Shown piece after piece: positions 11,848-43,998 of a stretch of 64,000 bases of DNA. The stretch covers positions 6,079 through 70,078 of the forward strand of contig CAJOPC010000004.1 of NCBI GenBank assembly GCA_905236245.1, given 5' to 3'. The notes under the pieces are model-generated. The model made no database searches. It had not been told where the DNA came from and saw only the letters and a program-made list of their open reading frames with translations. A program made the translations under genes and the position numbers. The stretch's first letter is position 1. Each line of letters begins with the position of its first letter. The stretch comes from an uncultured Alphaproteobacteria bacterium. Its GTDB lineage: Bacteria > Pseudomonadota > Alphaproteobacteria > CAAHEQ01 > UBA3637.

Positions 11848-13377
11848 ATGTATTTGAAGTTTTTCTTTTGTTTTTTTATTATATTGCTGCTACCTCTTTG
11901 GTCGGTGACTTTTCGGAGCGATTTTTTGTCTTTAATGGCCGGGCTTTCTTTTCTAATGGGGATTTTTTGCTTCACCTTGTCATCTGTTTCAATCTTAAAA
12001 AGAATAAAATATCTTAAATTTTTAAGGATTTTTATTTTAATATCTTCAAGTATATTTTACATCCTATATCTAATTCCAATATCCACAGTTTTTCAAGGTC
12101 TCACTTCCAACGATATTGTCGCTGTTTTTCAAACAAATGGAGCCGAAGCATTTGACTATCTTGCAGACAACTTAAAAATTTATGTGTTCATTCCTTTGGC
12201 CACTATTTTGGCTATCTTCATCTGTCTATGTATCAAAAATGTAGATAAATATTGTTTTGTTAAAAATCAAAAAGAAGCTGTTTTATTCTTACTTGCCAGC
12301 ATTGTTTTTATATGGTTCTACCAAACTAATGCGCTCACTATACCGATATACGATGCCGCTGATAAAATTGAACGATATTATGCCTTCTATAATAATTTAA
12401 AAAACAGAGAATATCCCAAATCCATAGAAAAAAACACCAAAGAAGGAATTTATGTCGTCGTTATTGGAGAAAGTCAAAATAGAGATTTTATGTCCGTTTA
12501 CAAACCTACCGAATACGATACGACACCTTTTTTATCAAGTATAAAATCAAGCAAAAATTGGTTCTTCTTTGATAATGCTTACTCTTGCCATGTTTATACC
12601 ATCGCAACATTAACTTACGCATTGACCCAAAAAAATAACTATAACAATTTGGACCTTTCAGAAAGCTATTCCATTGCGCATATGTTACATGAATTCGACA
12701 CTTACTGGCTCAGCAATCAAAAAGCAGTCGGCTATTACGGCGAACAAATAGCAGAAATTGGCCTACAAACAAAACATTCAACATTTATTAATAAATCCTT
12801 CGTCAAAGGGGATCCATATGATGAAGAACTCTTAAAATACCTGCCCAAAGAATCATCGTTAGTAAAAACAACTATTATATTTATTCATTTAATGGGAAAT
12901 CATCCAAATTATCGCAAAAGATATCCTGAAAAATTTGAAAAATACCCCAATACTTATGCCAATTCAATTTTATATAACGATTATATTGTTGAACAAATAT
13001 ACAATCATTTTGCATCCATGCGCAATTTTTCAGCTTTGATATATTTTTCAGATCATGGAGAAGATACAGAATGTGCCTGCCACAATCCTTCTAAATTTAC
13101 ATGGGAGATGACAAAAATTCCTTTTTATATCTATTTATCAGATAATTATATCAAACAACATCCTCAAAAAATTAGTACATTAAAAAAACATTTACATACC
13201 CCTTTTACAAATGATTTGTTCTTTGAAACATTTTTAGGCATATTAGACATTACAGACAAAAGATTTTACGCGCCAGAAAATGATCTTTCCAACTCCAATT
13301 ATAATCATACAAAATCAGATTTGACTACTTTTCATGGAGAAAAGAGTTTAGCCGAATATACAACCATAATACCATAA
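11848..13377 (+). CDS. Phosphoethanolamine transferase (EptA/LptA-like sulfatase-fold membrane protein)
   Basis: N-terminal multi-TM domain plus a periplasmic sulfatase domain with YVVVIGESQNRD and HLMGNH motifs. Very AT-rich. Confidence 0.7.
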   Translation: MYLKFFFCFFIILLLPLWSVTFRSDFLSLMAGLSFLMGIFCFTLSSVSILKRIKYLKFLRIFILISSSIFYILYLIPISTVFQGLTSNDIVAVFQTNGAEAFDYLADNLKIYVFIPLATILAIFICLCIKNVDKYCFVKNQKEAVLFLLASIVFIWFYQTNALTIPIYDAADKIERYYAFYNNLKNREYPKSIEKNTKEGIYVVVIGESQNRDFMSVYKPTEYDTTPFLSSIKSSKNWFFFDNAYSCHVYTIATLTYALTQKNNYNNLDLSESYSIAHMLHEFDTYWLSNQKAVGYYGEQIAEIGLQTKHSTFINKSFVKGDPYDEELLKYLPKESSLVKTTIIFIHLMGNHPNYRKRYPEKFEKYPNTYANSILYNDYIVEQIYNHFASMRNFSALIYFSDHGEDTECACHNPSKFTWEMTKIPFYIYLSDNYIKQHPQKISTLKKHLHTPFTNDLFFETFLGILDITDKRFYAPENDLSNSNYNHTKSDLTTFHGEKSLAEYTTIIP

Positions 13378-13400
13378 AAATACTTAAATAAAGAAATAAA

Positions 13401-13922
13401 ATGGCCAACAGGAAAATCTTTTTAAAACAACTTTCAAATAGTTATCAGCTTAGACGCTTAACAAAAGAGGATATTTCCTGCGTTTTAGAATTATGCAAAG
13501 GAAATCCATATTATTATAAACATTGTCCACCATCTCCAACGCCGGAAAACATCAAACGAGATATGCGGGCACTACCTCCCAGGACAACAAAAAAAGACAA
13601 AAGATATATTGGATTTTTCCAAGGCGCCGAATTAATTGCCGTTATGGATTTAATTTTCAATTATCCGAATTCTGAAACTTGTTTTATAGGATTTTTTATG
13701 ATGAATAAGAAATATCAAGGTCAAGGCATCGGCTCTCAGATTATTCAAAACGCGTTGGAATATTTAAAAAATTTTTATAAAACTGTTCGCTTGGGCTATG
13801 TTTCCACCAATGAACAAGCAAAAAGGTTTTGGTTAAAAAATGGTTTTAAATACACCGGCAAAGAATATCGAGACTCTCAATATCTTTATGTTGTTAAAAT
13901 AATGGCCAAAGAATTAAAATAA
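13401..13922 (+). CDS. GNAT family N-acetyltransferase
   Basis: GFFMMNKKYQGQGIGSQII acetyl-CoA binding motif (Q/RxxGxG/A). Confidence 0.7.
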   Translation: MANRKIFLKQLSNSYQLRRLTKEDISCVLELCKGNPYYYKHCPPSPTPENIKRDMRALPPRTTKKDKRYIGFFQGAELIAVMDLIFNYPNSETCFIGFFMMNKKYQGQGIGSQIIQNALEYLKNFYKTVRLGYVSTNEQAKRFWLKNGFKYTGKEYRDSQYLYVVKIMAKELK

Positions 13923-14092
13923 TTATATATGAATTTTTCCACTTGCTTTTGATAAAAAAAAGAATTAAACTGGCAAAGTTTGGATACTAGGAGGGATATG
14001 AGACCGTTGGCCAACGCAAGTTTAATTCATGGCGGCCGTTTAGAAAACGGATATGGTTTTGCCCCCTCAAAACAAGATTTAATGACTATGGA

Positions 14093-14125
14093 AAACTCTC
14101 TAATACACCAGAGAGTTTTTTCGTT
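14093..14125 (+). terminator. Intrinsic terminator-like hairpin plus T-run in the pyrG leader (candidate attenuator)
   Basis: CTCTC-taatacacca-GAGAG followed by TTTTTTCGTTTT. It ends about 18 nt before the pyrG ATG. Confidence 0.55.
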
Positions 14126-14142
14126 TTATGAAAGGGTATAAG

Positions 14143-15789
14143 ATGACAAAGTATGTATTTATTATTGGTGGTGTTGTTTCTTCTTTGGGCAAAGGAATTG
14201 CTTCGGCATCCACAGGTGCTTTATTAAAAGCCAGAGGTTATTCTGTTCGTATGAGAAAAATGGATCCTTATTTGAACGTAGATCCGGGCACTATGTCACC
14301 TTATCAACACGGTGAAGTTTTTGTCACAGAAGACGGCGCAGAAACGGATTTGGATTTAGGCCACTATGAACGTTTTGCAGATGTCAATTGTCATAAAACG
14401 GACAGCATTTCTGGAGGCAAAATTTATTTTAACGTTTTACAAAAAGAGCGTCGAGGTGATTATTTGGGGGCAACAGTTCAAGCTATTCCCCATGTCACAA
14501 ATGAAATCAAAGAATTTTTAAGATCAGATTTACATGGTGAAGATTTTGTGTTGTATGAAGTGGGCGGAACAGTCGGAGATATTGAAGGCACTTTGTTTTT
14601 GGAAGCAGTTCGTCAATTTGCTAACGAAGTGGGGCGCCAAAATGTGTGCTTTTTGTTTTTAACATTGCTCCCTTATATTTCTACTGCAGGCGAGTTGAAA
14701 ACGAAACCCACTCAACATGCAGTGAGGACTTTGATGGAGGCCGGAATTCAAGCGGATATTTTGTTGTGCAGAAGTAAAATGAACTTGGGGCCAGAAGAGC
14801 GCAGAAAATTAGCGCTGTTTTGCAATGTTTCGCCGGAGGATGTTATTATGGCCTTAGATGTAGATAACATCTACAAAATTCCTTTGGTTTATCATGAGCA
14901 AGGCTTAGATGTTCAAATTTTGAAACATTTTAATATGTTAGAACAAGCCCCCGAACCAGATTTAAGTGGCTGGAACAAAATTATTCATACTTGTTCCAAT
15001 TATGAAAAAGATGTCAAAATTGCTGTTGTAGGGAAATACTGTGGATTGTTGGAAGCGTACAAATCATTGAATGAGGCATTGGTTCATGCTGGCATAGCCA
15101 ATCACGCAAAAGTAAAAGTGACTTGGTTAGAGGCCGAACAATTTGAGGATCTTTCACAAGAGCAAGTGAATGAGCAATTAAAACCCTACTCAGGCATTTT
15201 AATACCTGGAGGTTTTGGCGTGCGTGGCATTGAAGGAAAAATTAAAGCTATCCGCTATGCAAGAGAAAATAAAGTTCCTTTCTTTGGTATTTGTCTAGGG
15301 ATGCAAATGGCCGTCGTAGAGGCCTGTAGATCATTACTAGGCATAGAAAATGCAGGGTCAGCGGAATTTGGGAGTCATTATATTCCAGTTGTTTCTAAAA
15401 TGAAAGTTTGGGAACAAGATGGGAAAAAACAAATTCGTGCAGACAACAGTGATTTAGGCGGCACAATGCGTTTAGGGGCCTATCCTTGTGTCCTGAAAAA
15501 AGGATCTTTGGCCGCGCAAATTTACAATGGAGTGACGGAAATCCAAGAACGCCATCGCCATCGGTATGAAGTGGACATGTCCTATGCACAACAATTAGCC
15601 GAACATGGAATGGAAATTTCTGGAAAATCTCCAGATGATTTATTGCCAGAAATTGTTGAAATTCCTGAACACCCATTTTTTATCGGTGTGCAATTCCATC
15701 CAGAATTTACATCCAGACCTGGTCGCCCTAATCCTATTTTTAAAGCATTTATTGAATCGGCCCTTAAATATGTAGTAACCGACTCATAA
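14143..15789 (+). CDS. pyrG: CTP synthase
   Basis: [19 protein letters not shown]-terminus. Glutamine amidotransferase domain with GICLGMQ and HPEF motifs. Alternative upstream start at 14128. Confidence 0.95.
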
Positions 15790-37718: not shown

Positions 37719-38300
37719 TTATTTTTTCTGTTCGGCCTGCCACTCTGACCTCAATTTTGACCATATTTGAGTATCGCGAAAAGACTGCCACCGCTTGTCC
37801 CAGATATTCGAACGCAGCACACCCTCCAAACGATAACCGCACCGCTTTGGCACATTTATTGAGCGCACATTTTCGACATCACAACCAATCATAATCCGAT
37901 TGACACCTTTCTTAAATGCGGTATTTTCCAAAGCACTCACAGCCTCTGACATATAACCATGTCCAACAGCGTCATCGCTAAGCCAATACCCAATTTCGGC
38001 AGACTTATGTTTTTCACTGTAATCCATCAAATCAACACACCCCAAAAGAGCTTTTGTTTTTTTATTGCGAATTAAATAAGCAAAACCTTCACCTTTATCC
38101 CAAGTTTGTGTTTGATTCGTCAACCACGGCAATCTATCCTCCGGCGTTTTAACGCCATCCACCCACGGCAACCAATCGCGTAAAGTCTTGCGAGACAAAT
38201 CAATTTTTTCAAACATTTCTTTGGACAACTCAACAGAGGCGGGATAAGGCCGCACTAAAACAATGCGATCCGATTCAATTTTTGCTGGCATTTTTAACAT
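37719..38300 (-). CDS. GNAT family N-acetyltransferase (RimJ/RimL-like)
   Basis: GNAT fold motifs (IGYWLSDDAVGHGYMSEAV). Confidence 0.65.
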   Translation of the reverse strand: MLKMPAKIESDRIVLVRPYPASVELSKEMFEKIDLSRKTLRDWLPWVDGVKTPEDRLPWLTNQTQTWDKGEGFAYLIRNKKTKALLGCVDLMDYSEKHKSAEIGYWLSDDAVGHGYMSEAVSALENTAFKKGVNRIMIGCDVENVRSINVPKRCGYRLEGVLRSNIWDKRWQSFRDTQIWSKLRSEWQAEQKK

Positions 38301-38349
38301 TTTTATCCCCTAATTTTTTGTACTACTTTTCCATTTTTAAAAATTACTT

Positions 38350-39189
38350 TTACCTACACAATGGTGTAATAAATGGTCCATTTGATTTAGGACGAGAAAA
38401 ATTACCCACATCACTGTTATTAGCCGACACATTAAACATTGCACAGGAATTATCAGCTGAGTAATTAGAGCTGGTCCAAAAACTAACTGGTCCAAAATTT
38501 TGCCTCAGAGCAATAATCACAGCACTATAATGAGAATATACGAAATCTTCATGCTCTGGCAAAATAGTTTTATTCTCACATTGATAACAATTTTCCCAAT
38601 AATTATACCAAGGCCCTGCACTTTGACCAGATACACAACAAGAAGAGTATATACCGGAACCACCAGTAACTAGTGTTGAAGTATCACTCTGATAACAATT
38701 AAACTCGGCCACATCTATTAAAGATTTACCCTGTGCTTTGCACCAATTATCCGCAGACCACCAACTCATCCGTTCATATTTGTTAATGACTTCCCCTAAT
38801 CCTTCTATATTAACAGGGCCAAGCACATCTCCGATAGCGGTACAGGTTCCTGTATTTGGTTGTTCACAATTTGATCCATCCAAATTACAGTATTCGCCCT
38901 CATTACAATCCTCATTACTCTTACAACCATCAAAAATTGTTTCCGTACCACATGGATCTTCTTTGTATGACAAATACACATTACCATTGGCACAAACCGT
39001 ACATTTTCCAAATCTATCCTCTAACACGCCAGCGGCACAAGCGCCACCTTTTCCATTGATACGCACATCAACAGAGTCCACTCCTACTCCGCGATATACG
39101 GAGCTCTTACGACTTTTCCCGCCACCACCAAAGGCCAAAACACTTGTTGCCATTAAAAGTGCTGTTCCAAATAATAATATTTTATTCAT
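38350..39189 (-). CDS. Secreted cysteine-rich protein, family member P2 (conserved leader plus CTLD-like C-terminal domain)
   Basis: MNKILLFGTALLMATSVLAFGGGGKSRKSSVYRGVGVDS leader. The first ~105 aa match P3 at all but one position, after which the sequences diverge. WWSADNWCKAQGKSLIDVAEF motif. AAGGAG RBS. Confidence 0.8.
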   Translation of the reverse strand: MNKILLFGTALLMATSVLAFGGGGKSRKSSVYRGVGVDSVDVRINGKGGACAAGVLEDRFGKCTVCANGNVYLSYKEDPCGTETIFDGCKSNEDCNEGEYCNLDGSNCEQPNTGTCTAIGDVLGPVNIEGLGEVINKYERMSWWSADNWCKAQGKSLIDVAEFNCYQSDTSTLVTGGSGIYSSCCVSGQSAGPWYNYWENCYQCENKTILPEHEDFVYSHYSAVIIALRQNFGPVSFWTSSNYSADNSCAMFNVSANNSDVGNFSRPKSNGPFITPLCR

Positions 39190-39236
39190 AAAAACTCCTT
39201 TTTTAAAAATAAAACTCGCCCTGATAACTTAAAGTC

Positions 39237-39265
39237 ATTATATGTCATCCATTTTTAAATAGCAA
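39237..39265 (-). promoter_or_regulatory. Consensus sigma70 promoter of P2 (TTGCTA-17 bp-TATAAT on minus strand)
   Basis: On the minus strand, TTGCTA (39265-39260) and TATAAT (39242-39237). The identical module is found upstream of P3. Confidence 0.6.
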
Positions 39266-39296
39266 CAAAAAAGCCCGAGATAATCTCGGGCTTTTC
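39266..39296 (-). terminator. Rho-independent terminator of P3
   Basis: GCCCGAG-ataatc-CTCGGGC hairpin flanked by A and T runs. Confidence 0.7.
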
Positions 39297-39311
39297 ATGA
39301 GGACTATCGGG

Positions 39312-40034
39312 TTACTTACACAATGCAGGAGCATTCATGCCTTGTCCACCCTGTCGGCCATCTCTTGGGCCAATATATTTATCAAAAGTGCGCACATAAA
39401 CACTCTTACAGATATCTATACCATCATTTACCCAAAACCAATTATAACTTATCTTATCCAAAACTGGTTGCCAATCTAAATGACATCCAGAACTTTCTTG
39501 ACACGTTTCACCATTGATAATGACACCACTAACACTGGAAGGATCAATACCAATATCTTCTAAGCCAATCAACTGTTTTCCCCTAGCAGCACACCAATTT
39601 TCAGCAGCCCAATAGGAAAAAGAATCTTGGCTAATTATACAACCATCATCAAAAGTTGTTTTAATATCATTCTCATTTAATGGAGAACACACGCCTGTAT
39701 CTGGCTGTTCACAATTACTACCTGTCAAATTGCAATATTCATTTTCTCCACATTGTACATTACTTACACAACCTGTTACACTTGTTTCCGTACCACATGG
39801 ATCTTCTTCGTATGACAAATACACATTACCATTGGCACAAACCGTACATTTTCCAAATCTATCCTCTAACACACCAGCAGCACAAGCACCACCTTTTCCA
39901 TTAATATGCACATCAACAGAGTCCACTCCTACTCCGCGATATACGGAGCTCTTACGACTTTTCCCACCTCCACCAAAGGCCAAAACACTTGTTGCCATTA
40001 AAAGCGCTGTTCCAAATAATAATACTTTGTTCAT
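39312..40034 (-). CDS. Secreted cysteine-rich protein, family member P3 (tandem paralog of P2)
   Basis: Leader and first ~105 aa match P2 at all but one position (K/V at the fourth residue). Divergent C-terminus still containing YWAAENWCAARGKQLIGL. Confidence 0.8.
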   Translation of the reverse strand: MNKVLLFGTALLMATSVLAFGGGGKSRKSSVYRGVGVDSVDVHINGKGGACAAGVLEDRFGKCTVCANGNVYLSYEEDPCGTETSVTGCVSNVQCGENEYCNLTGSNCEQPDTGVCSPLNENDIKTTFDDGCIISQDSFSYWAAENWCAARGKQLIGLEDIGIDPSSVSGVIINGETCQESSGCHLDWQPVLDKISYNWFWVNDGIDICKSVYVRTFDKYIGPRDGRQGGQGMNAPALCK

Positions 40035-40070
40035 AAAAGCTCCTTTTTTAAAAATAAAACTCGCCTTGAT

Positions 40071-40231
40071 GAGAGGCGGTTGGAAGCTCGAAAACTATCA
40101 GATAGAATAGTGCGACATATTTCGGTGTTAACACCTTTATTTTGTCACCTTCCAACCACGTGATTGGAATTTTTCGTCCTTGGACGCTATCTGAAAGGCT
40201 TTCGAGACCTTAGATCGGGAATCACCCAATC
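40071..40231 (-). other. About 160-bp structured MITE-like insert in the P3 5'UTR (absent from the otherwise identical P2 leader)
   Basis: Flanked by sequence shared with the P2 leader. It contains a perfect 12-bp palindrome GGTGTTAACACC, a near-palindrome TTCCAACCACGTGATTGGAA, and outer inverted arms CTCGAAA...CAGATAG / CTATCTG...TTTCGAG. Confidence 0.55.
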
Positions 40232-40238
40232 CAAAGTC

Positions 40239-40267
40239 ATTATATGTCATCCATTTTTAAATAGCAA
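40239..40267 (-). promoter_or_regulatory. Consensus sigma70 promoter of P3 (same module as P2)
   Basis: TTGCTA...TATAAT, identical to the P2 promoter sequence. Confidence 0.6.
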
Positions 40268-40269
40268 CA

Positions 40270-40300
40270 AAAAAAGCCCCGATTACTCAGGGCTTTTATT
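40270..40300 (-). terminator. Terminator of the PFOR gene
   Basis: AGCCCC-gattactca-GGGCT hairpin plus T-run, immediately downstream of the stop at 40316. Confidence 0.6.
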
Positions 40301-40315
40301 TATTATCGGAAAGAT

Positions 40316-43300
40316 TTATTTTTCTTCCCCGGCCAGTTGTTTGTAGTATGCCCAACGGTCATCCACTTGCTTTTGAGCCTGTTTCAACAATTCCTCATAG
40401 TGTTCCGGATCTTGTTGTTTCACATACTTAAAGCGTGTTTCTGTGGCCATAAAATCGGCGACAGGAATGCTTGGCTTACTATCTAACTGGAATGGATTTT
40501 TACCTTCCGCTTTCAGGCGCGGATCAAAACGATACAATGGCCACAAGCCGGATTTCACCGCCAATTGTTGATGGTTCAATCCTTCCTTACCGATATCATA
40601 CCCATGGTTGATACAGTGGCTGTAAGCAATGATCAAGCTTGGTCCATTAAAGGATTCGGCTTCGTTCATGGCTTTCAAAGCTTGAGCATCATTAGCACCC
40701 AAGGAAATGCTTGCCACATAAACTTCGCCCGAACTCATGGCAATGGCGCCCAAGTCTTTGCGTGGCAAGCTGCTGCCCGACACGGCAAACTTAGCGGACG
40801 CACCAATCGGTGTTGCTTTAGAACGTTGTCCACCAGTGTTGGAATAAACCTCGGTATCCATGACCATAATGTTCACATTCTTGCCAGAGTACAAAGCGTG
40901 ATCTAAACCACCATAGCCGATATCATAGGCCCAACCGTCACCGCCCAAAATCCACACGGATTTTTTAACGAGATAGTCGGCATGTTCGCTCATCAATTTC
41001 ACACGATCACCAGACAAGGTTGCCAATTTTTCTTTCAACGCTTTCACACGATCACGTTGAGCGGCAATACCTTCCTCTGTTGTTTGATCGGCATTTAAAA
41101 TACTGTCAGCCAATTCGGCACCAACTTGGTCTTTCAATTCGCCCAATAACTGAATTGCAAATTCAATTTTGGAATCAACCGAAGTACGCATACCTAAACC
41201 AAACTCAGCATTGTCTTCAAACAAACTGTTTGCCCAAGCGGGGCCTCTGCCTTCTTCATTTTGTGCATACGGTGTTGTCGGTAAGTTACCGCCATAGATG
41301 GAGGAACAACCTGTTGCATTGGCCACCAACAAACGATCACCAAAGAGCTGCGTCATCATCTTGACATACGGCGTTTCGCCACACCCAGCGCAAGCGCCAG
41401 AGAATTCAAACAATGGACGCATGAGTGCTACACTCTTCACCGCTTTTGGATTCAACTTGCTGCGATCCGCATCTGGCAATTGCATAAAGAAGTCAAAGTT
41501 CTTGATTTCTTGATCAATATGCTTTTCAATTGGCTCCATAACAAGCGTGTTTTTCGCTTTCATTGGGCAAACCTGCGTACACAAAGAACACCCTGTGCAA
41601 TCTTCTGGAGCTACCTGAACAATAAACTTGTTACCGGCAAAATCAGGTGTCTTATAATCCGAGGACTTAAAGCCCTCCGGCGCATTTGCCAATGTTTCTG
41701 GTTTAGCCACTTTTGCACGAATAGCGGCATGTGGACACACAGACACACATTTACCGCATTGGATACATGTTTCTGGATCCCAGCAAGGAATCTCCGTTGC
41801 CACACGGCGTTTTTCATAGCGAGCGGTATCGCTTGGCCACGTCCCATCCACAGTCCATTCAAACGCGGAGACAGGTAATTCATTTCCTTTTTCTTCAATG
41901 ATTTTACCCGTCACATTACGAATCAACTCTGGCGCAGTCGTTGGTACACCCGGTTGACGATGAATCTTGGAGTTTGCTTCTCCGATCTTCACTTCATACA
42001 AATGCTCCAAACTGGCATCCACGGCCTTGATGTTAGCATCCACCACTTCTTGACCTTTTTTCATATAGGTTTTTGTAATGGCTGCTTTAATCTTTTCAAT
42101 TGCCACATCCTTTGGCAACACGCCGGAAATAGCAAAGAAACAAGCCTGCATGATTGTGTTGATTCTGCGACCCATGCCTGTCTTACCGGCCACATCCACC
42201 GCATCAATGGCATACATTTTAATCTTCTTATCAATGATCTCTTGTTGCACCTCAATCGGTAAACTGTCCCATACTTGATCGGCAGGGGTTTGTGTATTCA
42301 ACAAGAACACAGAATTTGGTGCAGCCACCGCCAACAAATCAATCTTATGCAAGAATGGTTCATGGTGACAAGCCACAAAGTCAGCGGATGTAATCAAATA
42401 CGGCGCCTTAATCGGGCTCTTACCAAAGCGCAAGTGAGATGTTGTCATCGCACCCGACTTTTTGGAATCATACACAAAGTATGCTTGCCCATACATATCA
42501 TCGGCATCTGCAATAATTTTGATAGAGTTCTTATTTGCACCAACAGTACCATCAGAACCCAAACCAAAGAAGATACAACGACTGAGGTCTTGGGCTGGTA
42601 AATTCCAAGTGGCATCATAATCCAAAGATCCATTTGTCACATCATCATTGATACCAACGGTGAAGTGATTCTTTTCCACGTTTTCAAACACAGCTTTTGC
42701 CATAGCGGGCGTGAATTCTTTGGAGGAAATTCCATAACGGCCACCCAACACTTTTGGCATAGCGCGGCCATTGACAGCCCCTTCGGCCAAAGCGGATACA
42801 ACATCCAAGTACAAAGGTTCACCAACGGAACCAGCTTCTTTTGTTCTGTCTAATACTGTCACATATTTCACGGATTCAGGCAAAGCCGCCACAAATGCTT
42901 TGGATGGGAACGGACGATACAAATGTACCGCCACAACACCATATTTACCACCATTGGCATTCAAGGCTTTTACTGTTTCAGATAATGTTTCTACACCGGA
43001 ACCCATAGCAACCACAACATGTTCAGCATCTTTGGCGCCAACATAATCCACAATATGATAAGCACGGCCAGTGACTTCTTCAAACTTGCGCATACATTTT
43101 TCAACGATTTCTGGGCAAGCCTGATAATACTTGTTTGCAGCTTCTTTAATTTGGAAGAATACATCCGGATTCTGAGCTGTACCACGAACCTTTGGATGAT
43201 CCGGCGTCAAAGCGTTCTTACCTGTAAAGTCTGTTGGAATATCCGCCATCAAAGCCTTCAAATCATCATCACTCATCATATTGATTTTGTTGATTTCGTG

Positions 43301-43828
43301 GGATGTGCGGAATCCATCAAAGAAATGCAAGAACGGAATGCGTGACAAATATGTGGACATTTGCGCCACCGCGGCCAAATCATGTGCTTCCTGAACCGAG
43401 TTGGAAGCCAACATTGCAAATCCCGTTTGACGGCAAGCCATCACATCCGAGTGATCACCAAAAATGGACAAAGCATGTCCTGCAACAGTACGAGCCGCCA
43501 CATGCATCACAAATGGCAACAATTCGCCAGCAATCTTGTACATATTCGGAATCATCAACAACAAACCTTGGCTGGCGGTATAAGTTGTGGTCATAGATCC
43601 AGCTTGCAAAGCCCCATGCACGGCACCGATAGCTCCAGCTTCAGATTGCATTTCCAAAACTTGCGGCACTTTGCCCCAAATGTTTTGTTGTTTACCGGCC
43701 GCCCAAGCGTCCGCCCATTCGCCCATTGGAGAAGATGGCGTAATCGGATAAATAATGGAAAGTTCGTTCAATTTATATGCCACTGTAGCAGCGGCTTCGT
43801 TTGCATCAAGCATTTTTGTTTTAGACAT
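40316..43828 (-). CDS. nifJ: Pyruvate:ferredoxin (flavodoxin) oxidoreductase, single-polypeptide PFOR
   Basis: About 1170 aa. Two 4Fe-4S ferredoxin motifs (CIQCGKCVSVCP, CTGCSLCTQVCP). TPP-binding GDGW motif. The start is set at MSKTKMLD (43826-43828 rev). Confidence 0.92.
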   Translation of the reverse strand: MSKTKMLDANEAAATVAYKLNELSIIYPITPSSPMGEWADAWAAGKQQNIWGKVPQVLEMQSEAGAIGAVHGALQAGSMTTTYTASQGLLLMIPNMYKIAGELLPFVMHVAARTVAGHALSIFGDHSDVMACRQTGFAMLASNSVQEAHDLAAVAQMSTYLSRIPFLHFFDGFRTSHEINKINMMSDDDLKALMADIPTDFTGKNALTPDHPKVRGTAQNPDVFFQIKEAANKYYQACPEIVEKCMRKFEEVTGRAYHIVDYVGAKDAEHVVVAMGSGVETLSETVKALNANGGKYGVVAVHLYRPFPSKAFVAALPESVKYVTVLDRTKEAGSVGEPLYLDVVSALAEGAVNGRAMPKVLGGRYGISSKEFTPAMAKAVFENVEKNHFTVGINDDVTNGSLDYDATWNLPAQDLSRCIFFGLGSDGTVGANKNSIKIIADADDMYGQAYFVYDSKKSGAMTTSHLRFGKSPIKAPYLITSADFVACHHEPFLHKIDLLAVAAPNSVFLLNTQTPADQVWDSLPIEVQQEIIDKKIKMYAIDAVDVAGKTGMGRRINTIMQACFFAISGVLPKDVAIEKIKAAITKTYMKKGQEVVDANIKAVDASLEHLYEVKIGEANSKIHRQPGVPTTAPELIRNVTGKIIEEKGNELPVSAFEWTVDGTWPSDTARYEKRRVATEIPCWDPETCIQCGKCVSVCPHAAIRAKVAKPETLANAPEGFKSSDYKTPDFAGNKFIVQVAPEDCTGCSLCTQVCPMKAKNTLVMEPIEKHIDQEIKNFDFFMQLPDADRSKLNPKAVKSVALMRPLFEFSGACAGCGETPYVKMMTQLFGDRLLVANATGCSSIYGGNLPTTPYAQNEEGRGPAWANSLFEDNAEFGLGMRTSVDSKIEFAIQLLGELKDQVGAELADSILNADQTTEEGIAAQRDRVKALKEKLATLSGDRVKLMSEHADYLVKKSVWILGGDGWAYDIGYGGLDHALYSGKNVNIMVMDTEVYSNTGGQRSKATPIGASAKFAVSGSSLPRKDLGAIAMSSGEVYVASISLGANDAQALKAMNEAESFNGPSLIIAYSHCINHGYDIGKEGLNHQQLAVKSGLWPLYRFDPRLKAEGKNPFQLDSKPSIPVADFMATETRFKYVKQQDPEHYEELLKQAQKQVDDRWAYYKQLAGEEK

Positions 43829-43894
43829 GTTTTTCCTTTCAAAAATTGATGGCAATTTTATACAACTTTTTTTCATAAATTGCAAGCATAAAAT

Positions 43895-43928
43895 CTTAAA
43901 AAAATCCCCATCTTTTTGACGGGGATTT
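43895..43928 (-). terminator. Terminator of P4
   Basis: ATCCCCgtcaaaaagatGGGGAT hairpin plus T-run on the minus strand. Confidence 0.6.
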
Positions 43929-43998
43929 GAACAAAACATTTTTCCTATATTCTCGTTTGATAATTCACAACAATTTCACCTACACAAAAATATAAAAA

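Follow-up and report, generated by a model that had tools for sequence, protein, structure and literature searches.

Tandem genes for lectin-fold proteins in an uncultured alphaproteobacterium: distinct C-terminal domains behind front ends probably homogenised by gene conversion

Two neighbouring genes, P2 and P3, lie in tandem on the minus strand of a 64-kb window, the window being the whole stretch of 64,000 nucleotides analysed here from an uncultured member of the Alphaproteobacteria. The reading that we prefer, with a probability of roughly 0.7, is that the two genes carry old C-terminal subtypes, and that their front ends have been homogenised by gene conversion. The evidence is a mosaic pattern in which the 5′ parts of the genes are near-identical and the 3′ parts are strongly diverged, with a sharp change from one state to the other inside the coding sequence.

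P2 (39312-40034, minus strand, 240 aa) and P3 (38350-39189, minus strand, 279 aa) are full-length open reading frames, each of which has its own promoter, RBS, ATG and terminator. The locus is bounded by the PFOR gene on one side and by the GNAT acetyltransferase / tRNA-Phe on the other. The modules of P2 are, in order, a Sec-type leader, a conserved AFGG...GVDSVDVH tag, a small Cys-rich module (C..CTVCANGNVYLSY..DPC), a Cys repeat (GC.SN..C...EYC), and a short-type C-terminal lectin-fold domain (39315-39683, minus strand, residues ~118-240). The front modules of P3 are those of P2, and its long-type lectin-fold domain (38353-38832, minus strand, residues ~120-279) adds a CC motif and a helical insert. 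The N-termini of both proteins, MNK(V/I)LLFGTALLMATSVLA-FGGGG, are Sec-type leaders without the Glu5 motif, so neither protein has the class III signal peptide of type IV pilins, with its G, hydrophobic stretch and Glu at +5. We infer Sec export for proteins of the family, and the C-terminal lectin-fold domain, as modeled, would most likely be the tip that binds a ligand.

The near-identical block of P2 and P3 extends over 288 nt from 35 nt 5′ of the ATG through codon 84, and is 95.5% identical with 13 differences. The P2 copy (39783-40070, minus strand, running from ATCA.GGCGAG in the 5′ UTR) and the P3 copy (38938-39225, minus strand) both contain the 5′ UTR, the RBS and codons 1-84. When the genes are compared in register at an offset of 845 nt, the identity per 30 nt is 27-30 from the 5′ UTR to codon ~84, 18-21 past that codon, and later 9-10, so that the identity plot proposed in a preliminary description of this DNA finds divergence that is far from uniform along the genes. 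By a maximum chi-square scan the breakpoint falls at codon 84/85, after CDS nt 253, with differences at 11 of 252 positions before it and 35 of 93 after it (Fisher p = 6e-14). The abrupt identity boundary that had been described inside the coding sequence is thereby confirmed, and the near-identical block is real, but its length had been given as about 105 codons with 1 mismatch, and it proves to be 84 codons with 11 nucleotide and 3 amino-acid differences (V4I, H43R, and E76K). The C-terminal halves had been put at about 35% identity, close to the 32% protein identity measured for the whole part downstream of codon 84, though that part does not sit at one uniform level, since codons 85-115 are 65% identical in protein (20/31) and the C-terminal domain 23% (29/124).

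Codons 1-84 have a dS of 0.15 and a dN of 0.016, as against a dS of 1.84 in codons 85-115 and 1.12 in the C-terminal domain, which is to say that synonymous divergence is saturated (>1) beyond codon 84. Because of this saturation, and of an alignment that is unreliable at 23% identity, dN/dS is uninformative on positive selection in the C-terminal domain. One could suppose that no recombination took place and that extreme constraint on the export and tag module alone keeps the 5′ block identical; the leader is indeed conserved family-wide, with the tag pattern AFGG...GVDxIGVH in 85 of the 93 leader-bearing family representatives. This we consider very improbable. Leaders of the other paralogues have a dS of 0.6-1.6 with a dN of 0.05-0.2, and a low leader dS (0.18) is found only in the P2-P3 pair, which indicates a constraint on the protein and not on synonymous sites. 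Protein-level constraint is also insufficient because the identity takes in the promoter and the 5′ UTR, which are non-coding.

The two parts of the genes have different nearest relatives. Over the first 84 aa, P2 and P3 are mutual nearest relatives at 96%, followed by the next relative at 71%. The C-terminal domain of P3 is nearest to proteins of other organisms, with 46% identity to P0005, that of P2 is nearest to another set, at ~33% to P0128, P0085, P0130, and P0054, and neither is among the top matches of the other. The tract is phylogenetically incongruent with the rest of the gene, and this marks the pair as a mosaic, as does the combination of a sharp breakpoint with low dS inside the tract and high dS outside it. 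Large indels also set the two domains apart, as does the CC motif, which only that of P3 has; the same states are found in proteins of other species.

A recent whole-gene tandem duplication, followed by fast divergence of the C-terminal domain under selection, would account for genes that are adjacent on the same strand with a common architecture and promoter module, and binding domains of surface proteins are often fast-evolving. We nevertheless rate it as improbable. Faster protein evolution would not yield the contrast in dS, the P3 domain is closer to a protein of another organism (46%) than to that of P2 (23%), and the large indels and CC-motif states are held in common with proteins of other species. 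Given the dS contrast, and given that each domain has closer relatives in other organisms than the domain next to it, the P2 and P3 domains are to be taken as old and distinct lineages and not as fast-diverged copies. Recent duplication with accelerated divergence was the first of two alternatives in the preliminary description, and it finds no support in the saturated downstream dS and the different nearest relatives. The second was segmental gene conversion, which is supported by the breakpoint, by the dS of 0.15 versus 1.84 and 1.12, and by the incongruent relatives.

In the proposed mechanism, non-reciprocal homologous recombination between the neighbors would have homogenised the 5′ UTR together with codons 1-84, the promoter core would have been homogenised separately from that block, and the downstream edge of the converted tract would fall at a module boundary. 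The mosaic fits conversion of the 5′ part or replacement of the 3′ part alike; how many conversion events there were, and which way they went, is what we infer from it.

The promoter core TTGCTA-17-TATAAT with its flanks (32 nt) is present in exactly 2 copies in the window, at 39234-39265 and 40236-40267, with 0 mismatches, and the 26-nt UTR/RBS block GGCGAG...AAGGAG also in exactly 2, at 39195-39220 and 40040-40065. Each of the two promoters is preceded by a strong terminator hairpin, and terminator and promoter together make up a 65-nt repeat (family D3) whose copies are 86% identical. In one copy (40233-40297, minus strand), consensus scans find the terminator of PFOR, the gene upstream, at 40272-40297 and directly after it the P2 promoter, with -35 TTGCTA at 40262-40267 and -10 TATAAT at 40239-40244. 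The other copy (39231-39295, minus strand) has the P2 terminator, with a hairpin at 39268-39296 that goes 1 nt past the repeat copy, followed directly by the P3 promoter, with -35 at 39260-39265 and -10 at 39237-39242. The same module had been said to precede both genes; this is right as to the identical promoter core and RBS block, but the two regions are not colinear, as P2 has a 162-nt leader insertion (40071-40232, minus strand) between promoter and RBS where P3 has 5 nt.

The P2 leader insertion is strongly structured, with a fold energy of -69.5 kcal/mol (z = -5.6 versus shuffles), and is closed by a weak terminator-like hairpin at 40062-40078. It aligns with the Rfam family sRNA-Xcc1 (RF02221) at 40070-40157 over the full model length with all three helices formed, scoring 35.1 bits, which does not reach the gathering score of 53 bits; at the gathering threshold, Rfam finds two tRNAs only in the whole window. 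The sRNA-Xcc1 context described in bioRxiv 10.1101/2025.06.18.660453 has a symE-like gene downstream, which the P2 leader insertion does not have.

Given the metagenomic source, near-identical 5′ ends might also be produced by repeat collapse or chimerism in assembly, and a short Logan contig breaks off within the repeat itself, at position 38994 of the window, a sign that the region is hard for assemblers. That an artefact made the pattern is nonetheless scarcely credible, since independent assemblies of different samples (ERZ27234820, ERZ28573572 of sample SAMEA5961694, and the record of the window itself) all show this arrangement, 11 of 11 paralogue-specific differences are kept in two of the three assemblies, unique sequence flanks both copies, and the 3′ halves are distinct. 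One assembly, L004, is identical to L001 over 20.8 kb save for five sites, all of them sites of difference between P2 and P3. Each of the five changes is to the base of the other paralogue, the P3 copy of L004 carrying the P2 base at 39062, 39058, 39043, and 39028, and P2 and P3 are then identical over nt 70-225. This difference could be partly an assembly artefact, because with identical flanks of just 58 and 63 nt, one repeat branch may be threaded through both copies. In another species (L006), an independent tandem pair, P0004/P0008, is 99% identical over ~115 nt in its interior with flanks at 65-80%, which also speaks for conversion.

Conserved 5′ and variable 3′ ends are also what antigenic-variation families show, and CTLD-fold tips are classic targets of diversity-generating retroelements, so that programmed variation has to be weighed, in the form of a contingency locus, switching between expressed and silent cassettes, or a retroelement acting on a lectin-fold variable protein. 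The L004 changes, as possible micro-conversion between strains, would be in keeping with it. Nevertheless, the P2 and P3 open reading frames and promoter spacers contain no simple-sequence repeats or homopolymers of 7 or more, the only tract being seven T in a row at 40269-40275 (A7 when read on the plus strand), which belong to the tail of the terminator and lie upstream of the -35. There are no inverted repeats flanking the promoters, and no promoterless silent copies; promoter, RBS and start codon are present in P2 and P3 alike, and with full expression signals on both, neither is a silent cassette. When 38300-40350 is compared by blastn with the whole 64-kb window, paralogue 5′ ends are the only matches, so that nothing resembling a template repeat of either 3′ end is present there, and there is no Pfam match to a reverse transcriptase within ~10 kb on either side of P3, six genes there being without any match. 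The layout is identical in every contig spanning the locus.

Locus and window therefore lack the features of a phase-variable contingency locus, a pilE/pilS-type cassette, or a diversity-generating retroelement target, and programmed variation is in our judgment unlikely to a considerable degree. The idea of a contingency or variable-surface locus finds no support, there being no simple repeats, flanking inverted repeats or silent copies. The comparison between strains that had been suggested for it finds no difference in copy number or cassettes among the recovered assemblies and contigs spanning the locus, which is a weak test as these are all nearly clonal; exact-protein look-ups of P2, P3, a P3 variant, and the flanking acetyltransferase recover near-clonal copies of the same locus only.

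As to what the diverged domains are, the predicted models have the CTLD fold, being alpha/beta with two helices and two antiparallel sheets and superposable on solved CTLDs; the P2 model is of moderate confidence (pLDDT 69). The W..A...C...G..L core reported earlier is indeed retained, as W..A..NWC..G..L, in both P2 and P3. In the family alignment W149, C150 (NWC), A152, and C278 (LC-K/R) are invariant and W238 (FW-T/V) is nearly so, and the four invariant positions would fit the disulfide pattern of CTLDs, which joins helix 1 to the C-terminus. The term CTLD-like thus applies to the predicted fold and not to the sequence. Pfam at E ≤ 1 finds no family on P0, P1, P2, or P3, Lectin_C (PF00059) included, an NCBIfam scan of P1, P2, and P3 has no match, and a PDB sequence search with the family profile finds no meaningful sequence relative. 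The EPN/QPD and WND motifs, searched by regular expression, are absent from both CTLDs, the sole QPD of P2 (residue 110) being part of the Cys repeat, ahead of the domain. With these canonical Ca2+/sugar motifs absent, strict lectin activity is not implied.

P2 and P3 belong to a previously undescribed, lineage-restricted multigene family of disulfide-rich proteins, with at least five copies (P0, P1, P2, P3, and P4) in the window. P0 (349-1224, minus strand, 291 aa, identical to P0009) has the same leader, the CTVCANGNVYLSY module and a P3-type lectin-fold domain; P1 (43999-44715, minus strand, 238 aa) has the same leader and tag with a CC-rich body and no lectin-fold domain; and P4 (47823-48737, minus strand, 304 aa) has the same leader and tag with a P1-like CC-rich body. 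The family tag consists of AFGG, ~13 residues rich in Gly/Ser/Lys/Arg, and GVDxIGVH. In metagenomes the family has ~617 cluster representatives, with no Pfam or NCBIfam model. A scan of species-representative genomes finds only two distant relatives (36-38% identity) in other species, and a JGI metagenome scan finds 22 loci, all at ≤44% identity and all from other species. A prepilin-like N-terminus, G-RSMVE-hydrophobic, stands before the Cys modules and lectin-fold domain in 23 of 160 sequences scanned (159 fetched proteins plus P3 of the window), among them P0013, P0014, P0018, P0094, and P0110. Some relatives read GRSMVEML..., with HMM support for the prepilin motif below threshold. The position of the lectin-fold domain behind such an N-terminus points to display outside the cell, and an extracellular adhesin or receptor-binding role would suit the P2/P3 family.

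Gene conversion between tandem paralogues of secreted binding proteins is a well-known mechanism, and as the fold is likewise familiar, there is little new to be learned from the mosaic itself. Its modest value is to flag an unannotated family of bacterial lectin-fold proteins, which, being multicopy in uncultured Alphaproteobacteria and sometimes having pilin-like N-termini, are candidate adhesins or receptor-binding proteins of organisms about whose functions almost nothing is known. The conserved tag at the N-terminus offers a concrete candidate sorting signal. A more speculative proposal, which we hold with considerable doubt, is that the AFGG...GVDxIGVH tag is an undescribed signal for export or surface attachment, swappable with the prepilin N-terminus, that recombination at the module boundary close to codon 84 re-pairs the front module, for expression, export and anchoring, with different lectin-fold tips, and that the P2 leader RNA adds copy-specific regulation. 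If true, this would be a small-protein counterpart to the tip-swapping of phage tail fibers and Bdellovibrio MAT fibers.

Among known systems, the eukaryotic CTLDs (Lectin_C PF00059; CD72, LLT1, CLEC5A, Ly49, and selectins) differ from P2 and P3, which are bacterial, have extra cysteines and inserts, and are without the Pfam match, EPN/QPD, or WND. The CTLD-like receptor-binding domains at the C-termini of intimin and invasin are among the closest. Intimin and invasin have an outer-membrane beta-barrel, are autotransporter-like, and have stalks of Ig-like repeats; barrel and Ig-like stalk are absent from P2 and P3. In the variable proteins of diversity-generating retroelements (Mtd and TvpA), the diversified part is a C-terminal ligand-binding domain of CTLD fold, as it would be in P2/P3, whose divergence, in contrast, is old, domain-wide, and not limited to adenine-templated sites. 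Also among the closest is the C-terminal domain of Bd2740, from the mosaic adhesive trimer fibers of Bdellovibrio bacteriovorus (PDB 8oks, PMC10769870), at 13-14% sequence identity; that domain is the tip of a trimeric fiber of ~600-1000 aa, whereas P2 and P3, at 240-279 aa, have a Sec leader and no fiber shaft or S74 motif. Modular type IV pilins such as PilB and PilC of Streptococcus sanguinis have a functional module grafted on a pilin (PMC8179133), and some relatives of P2 and P3 resemble them in having Cys modules and a lectin-fold domain behind a prepilin-like N-terminus; modular pilins have a class III signal peptide, while the leader of P2 and P3 is of the ordinary Sec type. The babA/babB/babC genes of Helicobacter pylori are paralogous adhesin genes with common 5′ regions, in which gene conversion in the first ~60-240 bp produces chimeras of the expression module of one gene and the binding part of another (PMC4552749). 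The bab genes differ in having dispersed loci, outer-membrane products, common 3′ ends as well, and CT repeats giving phase variation, a type of repeat not found in P2/P3, but in size and position the bab tract is much like the tract that P2 and P3 share.

P2 (39312-40034, minus strand, 240 aa) and P3 (38350-39189, minus strand, 279 aa) are tandem paralogues flanked on one side by a pyruvate:ferredoxin oxidoreductase (PFOR) gene with a 1207 aa product (40316-43939) and on the other by a GNAT acetyltransferase gene (37719-38300); a tRNA-Phe also lies near the locus. Nucleotide alignment finds them nearly identical from ~35 nt upstream of the ATG to codon 84, with an abrupt drop after that. The preliminary description had drawn the same sharp boundary, but at ~105 codons and with a single mismatch before it; we count 81 identical residues out of 84, with differences V4I, H43R, and E76K. 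Protein identity falls to 20/31 over residues 85-115 and to 29/124 over the remainder. At the nucleotide level the two genes differ at 11 sites within coding nt 1-252 and at 35 within the 93 nt that follow (Fisher p = 6e-14), and a maximum chi-square scan places the breakpoint after coding nt 253. The mosaic is real and statistically unambiguous.

Two origins had been offered for it, recent duplication followed by accelerated divergence, and segmental gene conversion. Nei-Gojobori estimates are dN 0.016 and dS 0.15 for codons 1-84, dN 0.39 and dS 1.84 for codons 85-115, and dN 1.02 and dS 1.12 beyond codon 115. Because the downstream synonymous sites are saturated, accelerated protein evolution after a recent duplication cannot be the source, and the C-terminal parts are old. 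BLAST of the separate segments against 159 family proteins points the same way. Over residues 1-84, P2 and P3 are mutually nearest at 96%, with the next relative at 71%, whereas the P3 C-terminal domain is nearest to the family protein P0005 (46%), followed by a set at about 40%, and the closest proteins to the P2 domain, at about 33%, are others again; neither domain ranks among the top hits of its neighbor. A CC motif and a helical insert mark the P3-type domains and are missing from the P2-type, and both types are found in proteins of other organisms. The low dS in front against the high dS behind, and the disagreement of the front and C-terminal relationships, favor conversion and tell against recent duplication. 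A third candidate, that constraint on the leader keeps the fronts alike, does not account for the identity, since the 44-codon leader among other paralogues has dS 0.6-1.6 (dN 0.05-0.2) with dS 0.18 only in P2-P3, and since the identity reaches into non-coding DNA. On these sequence comparisons, the best explanation of the mosaic is gene conversion between tandem paralogues that are themselves old and belong to an undescribed family of putative secreted proteins with the C-type lectin-like domain (CTLD) fold.

The same terminator-promoter-RBS module had been said to precede both genes, and that holds for its elements but not for their colinearity. The 32-nt promoter core TTGCTA-17-TATAAT and a 26-nt UTR/RBS block each occur in exactly 2 copies in the window with 0 mismatches, and a strong terminator hairpin lies directly 5' of each promoter. 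Between promoter and RBS, P2 has 162 extra nt (40071-40232, minus strand) where P3 has five, an insertion in the 5' UTR without counterpart in P3. Its predicted fold is much more stable than those of shuffled sequences (-69.5 kcal/mol, z -5.6). The Rfam family sRNA-Xcc1 matches full-length at 40070-40157 but sub-threshold, at 35 bits where the gathering score is 53, and the insertion ends just ahead of the RBS in a weak terminator-like hairpin (40062-40078). It could be a P2-specific small RNA or attenuator. No symE-like gene lies downstream of it, in contrast to the described sRNA-Xcc1 context.

The 20.8-kb locus was also recovered from two other assemblies, ERZ27234820 and ERZ28573572. The first differs from the window solely in ten clustered synonymous substitutions in the PFOR gene; these fall within 46 nt (41345-41390), are shared by the second assembly, and look like a short imported recombination tract. 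ERZ28573572 has five changes more, four in P3 (R43H among them) and one in P2. All five are at sites where the paralogues differ and each has the other copy's base, so that P2 equals P3 over coding nt 70 to 225 with flanking paralogue-specific sites retained. The probability of such placement by chance is negligible, and the mosaic haplotype A,T,T,C,T could not be produced by graph collapse of window-type reads; with identical flanks of just 58 and 63 nt, however, its assignment to both copies could reflect an error in threading the repeat. As evidence for ongoing conversion, the pattern is suggestive. One short Logan contig matches the window without a difference and breaks off within the repeat. 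No contig recovered for the locus has a copy-number or cassette difference, a weak between-strain test given near-clonal sampling.

Conversion may have occurred elsewhere in the family. Another species has the tandem pair P0004/P0008 (10001-10894 and 10957-11847 of locus L006; the same genes are in L007 and L009) at a different place in its genome. The two genes are 99% identical along an internal patch (codons about 38-77, about 115 nt), while identity is about 65% in the leader before it and below 60% in the 3' part behind it. This is a typical conversion patch, independent of the P2/P3 tract and in another position. That pair is followed, 1 kb downstream, by a third family gene (12811-14514). 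Of the loci examined, five hold tandem clusters of family genes, and leader DNA is 80-85% identical in some, none being as alike as P2/P3.

Within the window, P0 (349-1224, minus strand) has the P2/P3 leader and tag and a P3-type lectin-fold domain. P1 (43999-44715) and P4 (47823-48737), both minus strand, have the same leader and tag on CC-rich bodies (28 Cys in 238 aa in P1) and no lectin-fold domain, so the leader is common to unrelated cargo domains. Pfam has no match for P0-P3 and NCBIfam none for P1-P3. A word-index search found 24 relatives, and a full profile search 617 cluster representatives at E <= 0.001, 106 of them at <= 1e-30, including giants with up to 19 module copies (P0102, 6368 aa, 19 matched stretches; P0053, 4335 aa, 12). 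Species-representative genomes gave only two related loci, both in MAGs labelled Alphaproteobacteria. The window's own species is absent from the P3 scan, which takes one genome per GTDB species, yet NCBI lists both P2 and P3; the representative may lack P3, or else the pattern scan overlooked it.

The AlphaFold2 model of P3, made with the family alignment, has pLDDT above 90 for about residues 90-279, with residues 1-48 disordered. Bd2740 is the Ca2+-independent C-type-lectin-fold tip of a surface fibre (PMC10769870), and the first reading of the domain as CTLD-like is therefore right at the fold level; a motif search of the P2/P3 domains found none of the EPN/QPD and WND sugar/Ca2+ motifs. 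Upstream of the CTLD are a Cys repeat, GC.SN.DC..GEYC, which in relatives is weakly like TIGR04201, and a small module with four Cys, C..G....G.CTVC.NGNVYLSY..DPC. The protein starts with a Sec-type signal peptide whose last residues are AFGG; about 13 residues rich in Gly/Ser/Lys/Arg follow, and GVDxIGVH comes next. The pattern AFGG-spacer-GVD(A/S)IGVH is in 85 of 93 leader-bearing representatives (residues 19-44 in P2 and P3); disorder is predicted for it, and we could identify no known sorting signal to which it corresponds. At least 23 of 160 sequences scanned have instead a prepilin-like GRSMVEMLGVLAIIG... N-terminus, with sub-threshold HMM support, and keep the Cys modules and lectin-fold domain behind it in P0013, P0014, P0018, P0046, P0094, P0110, P0112, and others. 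These relatives resemble the modular-pilin design (PMC8179133) and argue for display outside the cell.

We propose that P2 and P3 would each be transcribed from their own sigma-70-like promoter, and that the Sec pathway would export the product, whose oxidation would give a disulfide-rich protein presenting the CTLD tip for ligand binding. The tandem layout and common architecture permit homologous recombination, by which a tract that starts in the 5' UTR and closes with the first Cys module was probably copied between neighbors, and the promoter core separately. The conversion would be old enough for about 4.5% divergence, with later micro-conversion possible. The suggestion of a contingency locus is unsupported, since the locus yielded neither simple repeats nor invertible segments nor silent cassettes, the 64-kb window yielded no template repeat, and no reverse transcriptase match is on record for the neighboring genes. 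What is worth following is the undescribed family, its N-terminal tag, and the structured leader specific to P2; gene conversion as a mechanism and the CTLD as a fold are both of known kinds. The closest mechanistic analogue of the P2/P3 tract is in the bab adhesin genes of Helicobacter pylori, where gene conversion falls in the 5' 60-240 bp (PMC4552749), although bab, unlike P2/P3, has phase-variable repeats.
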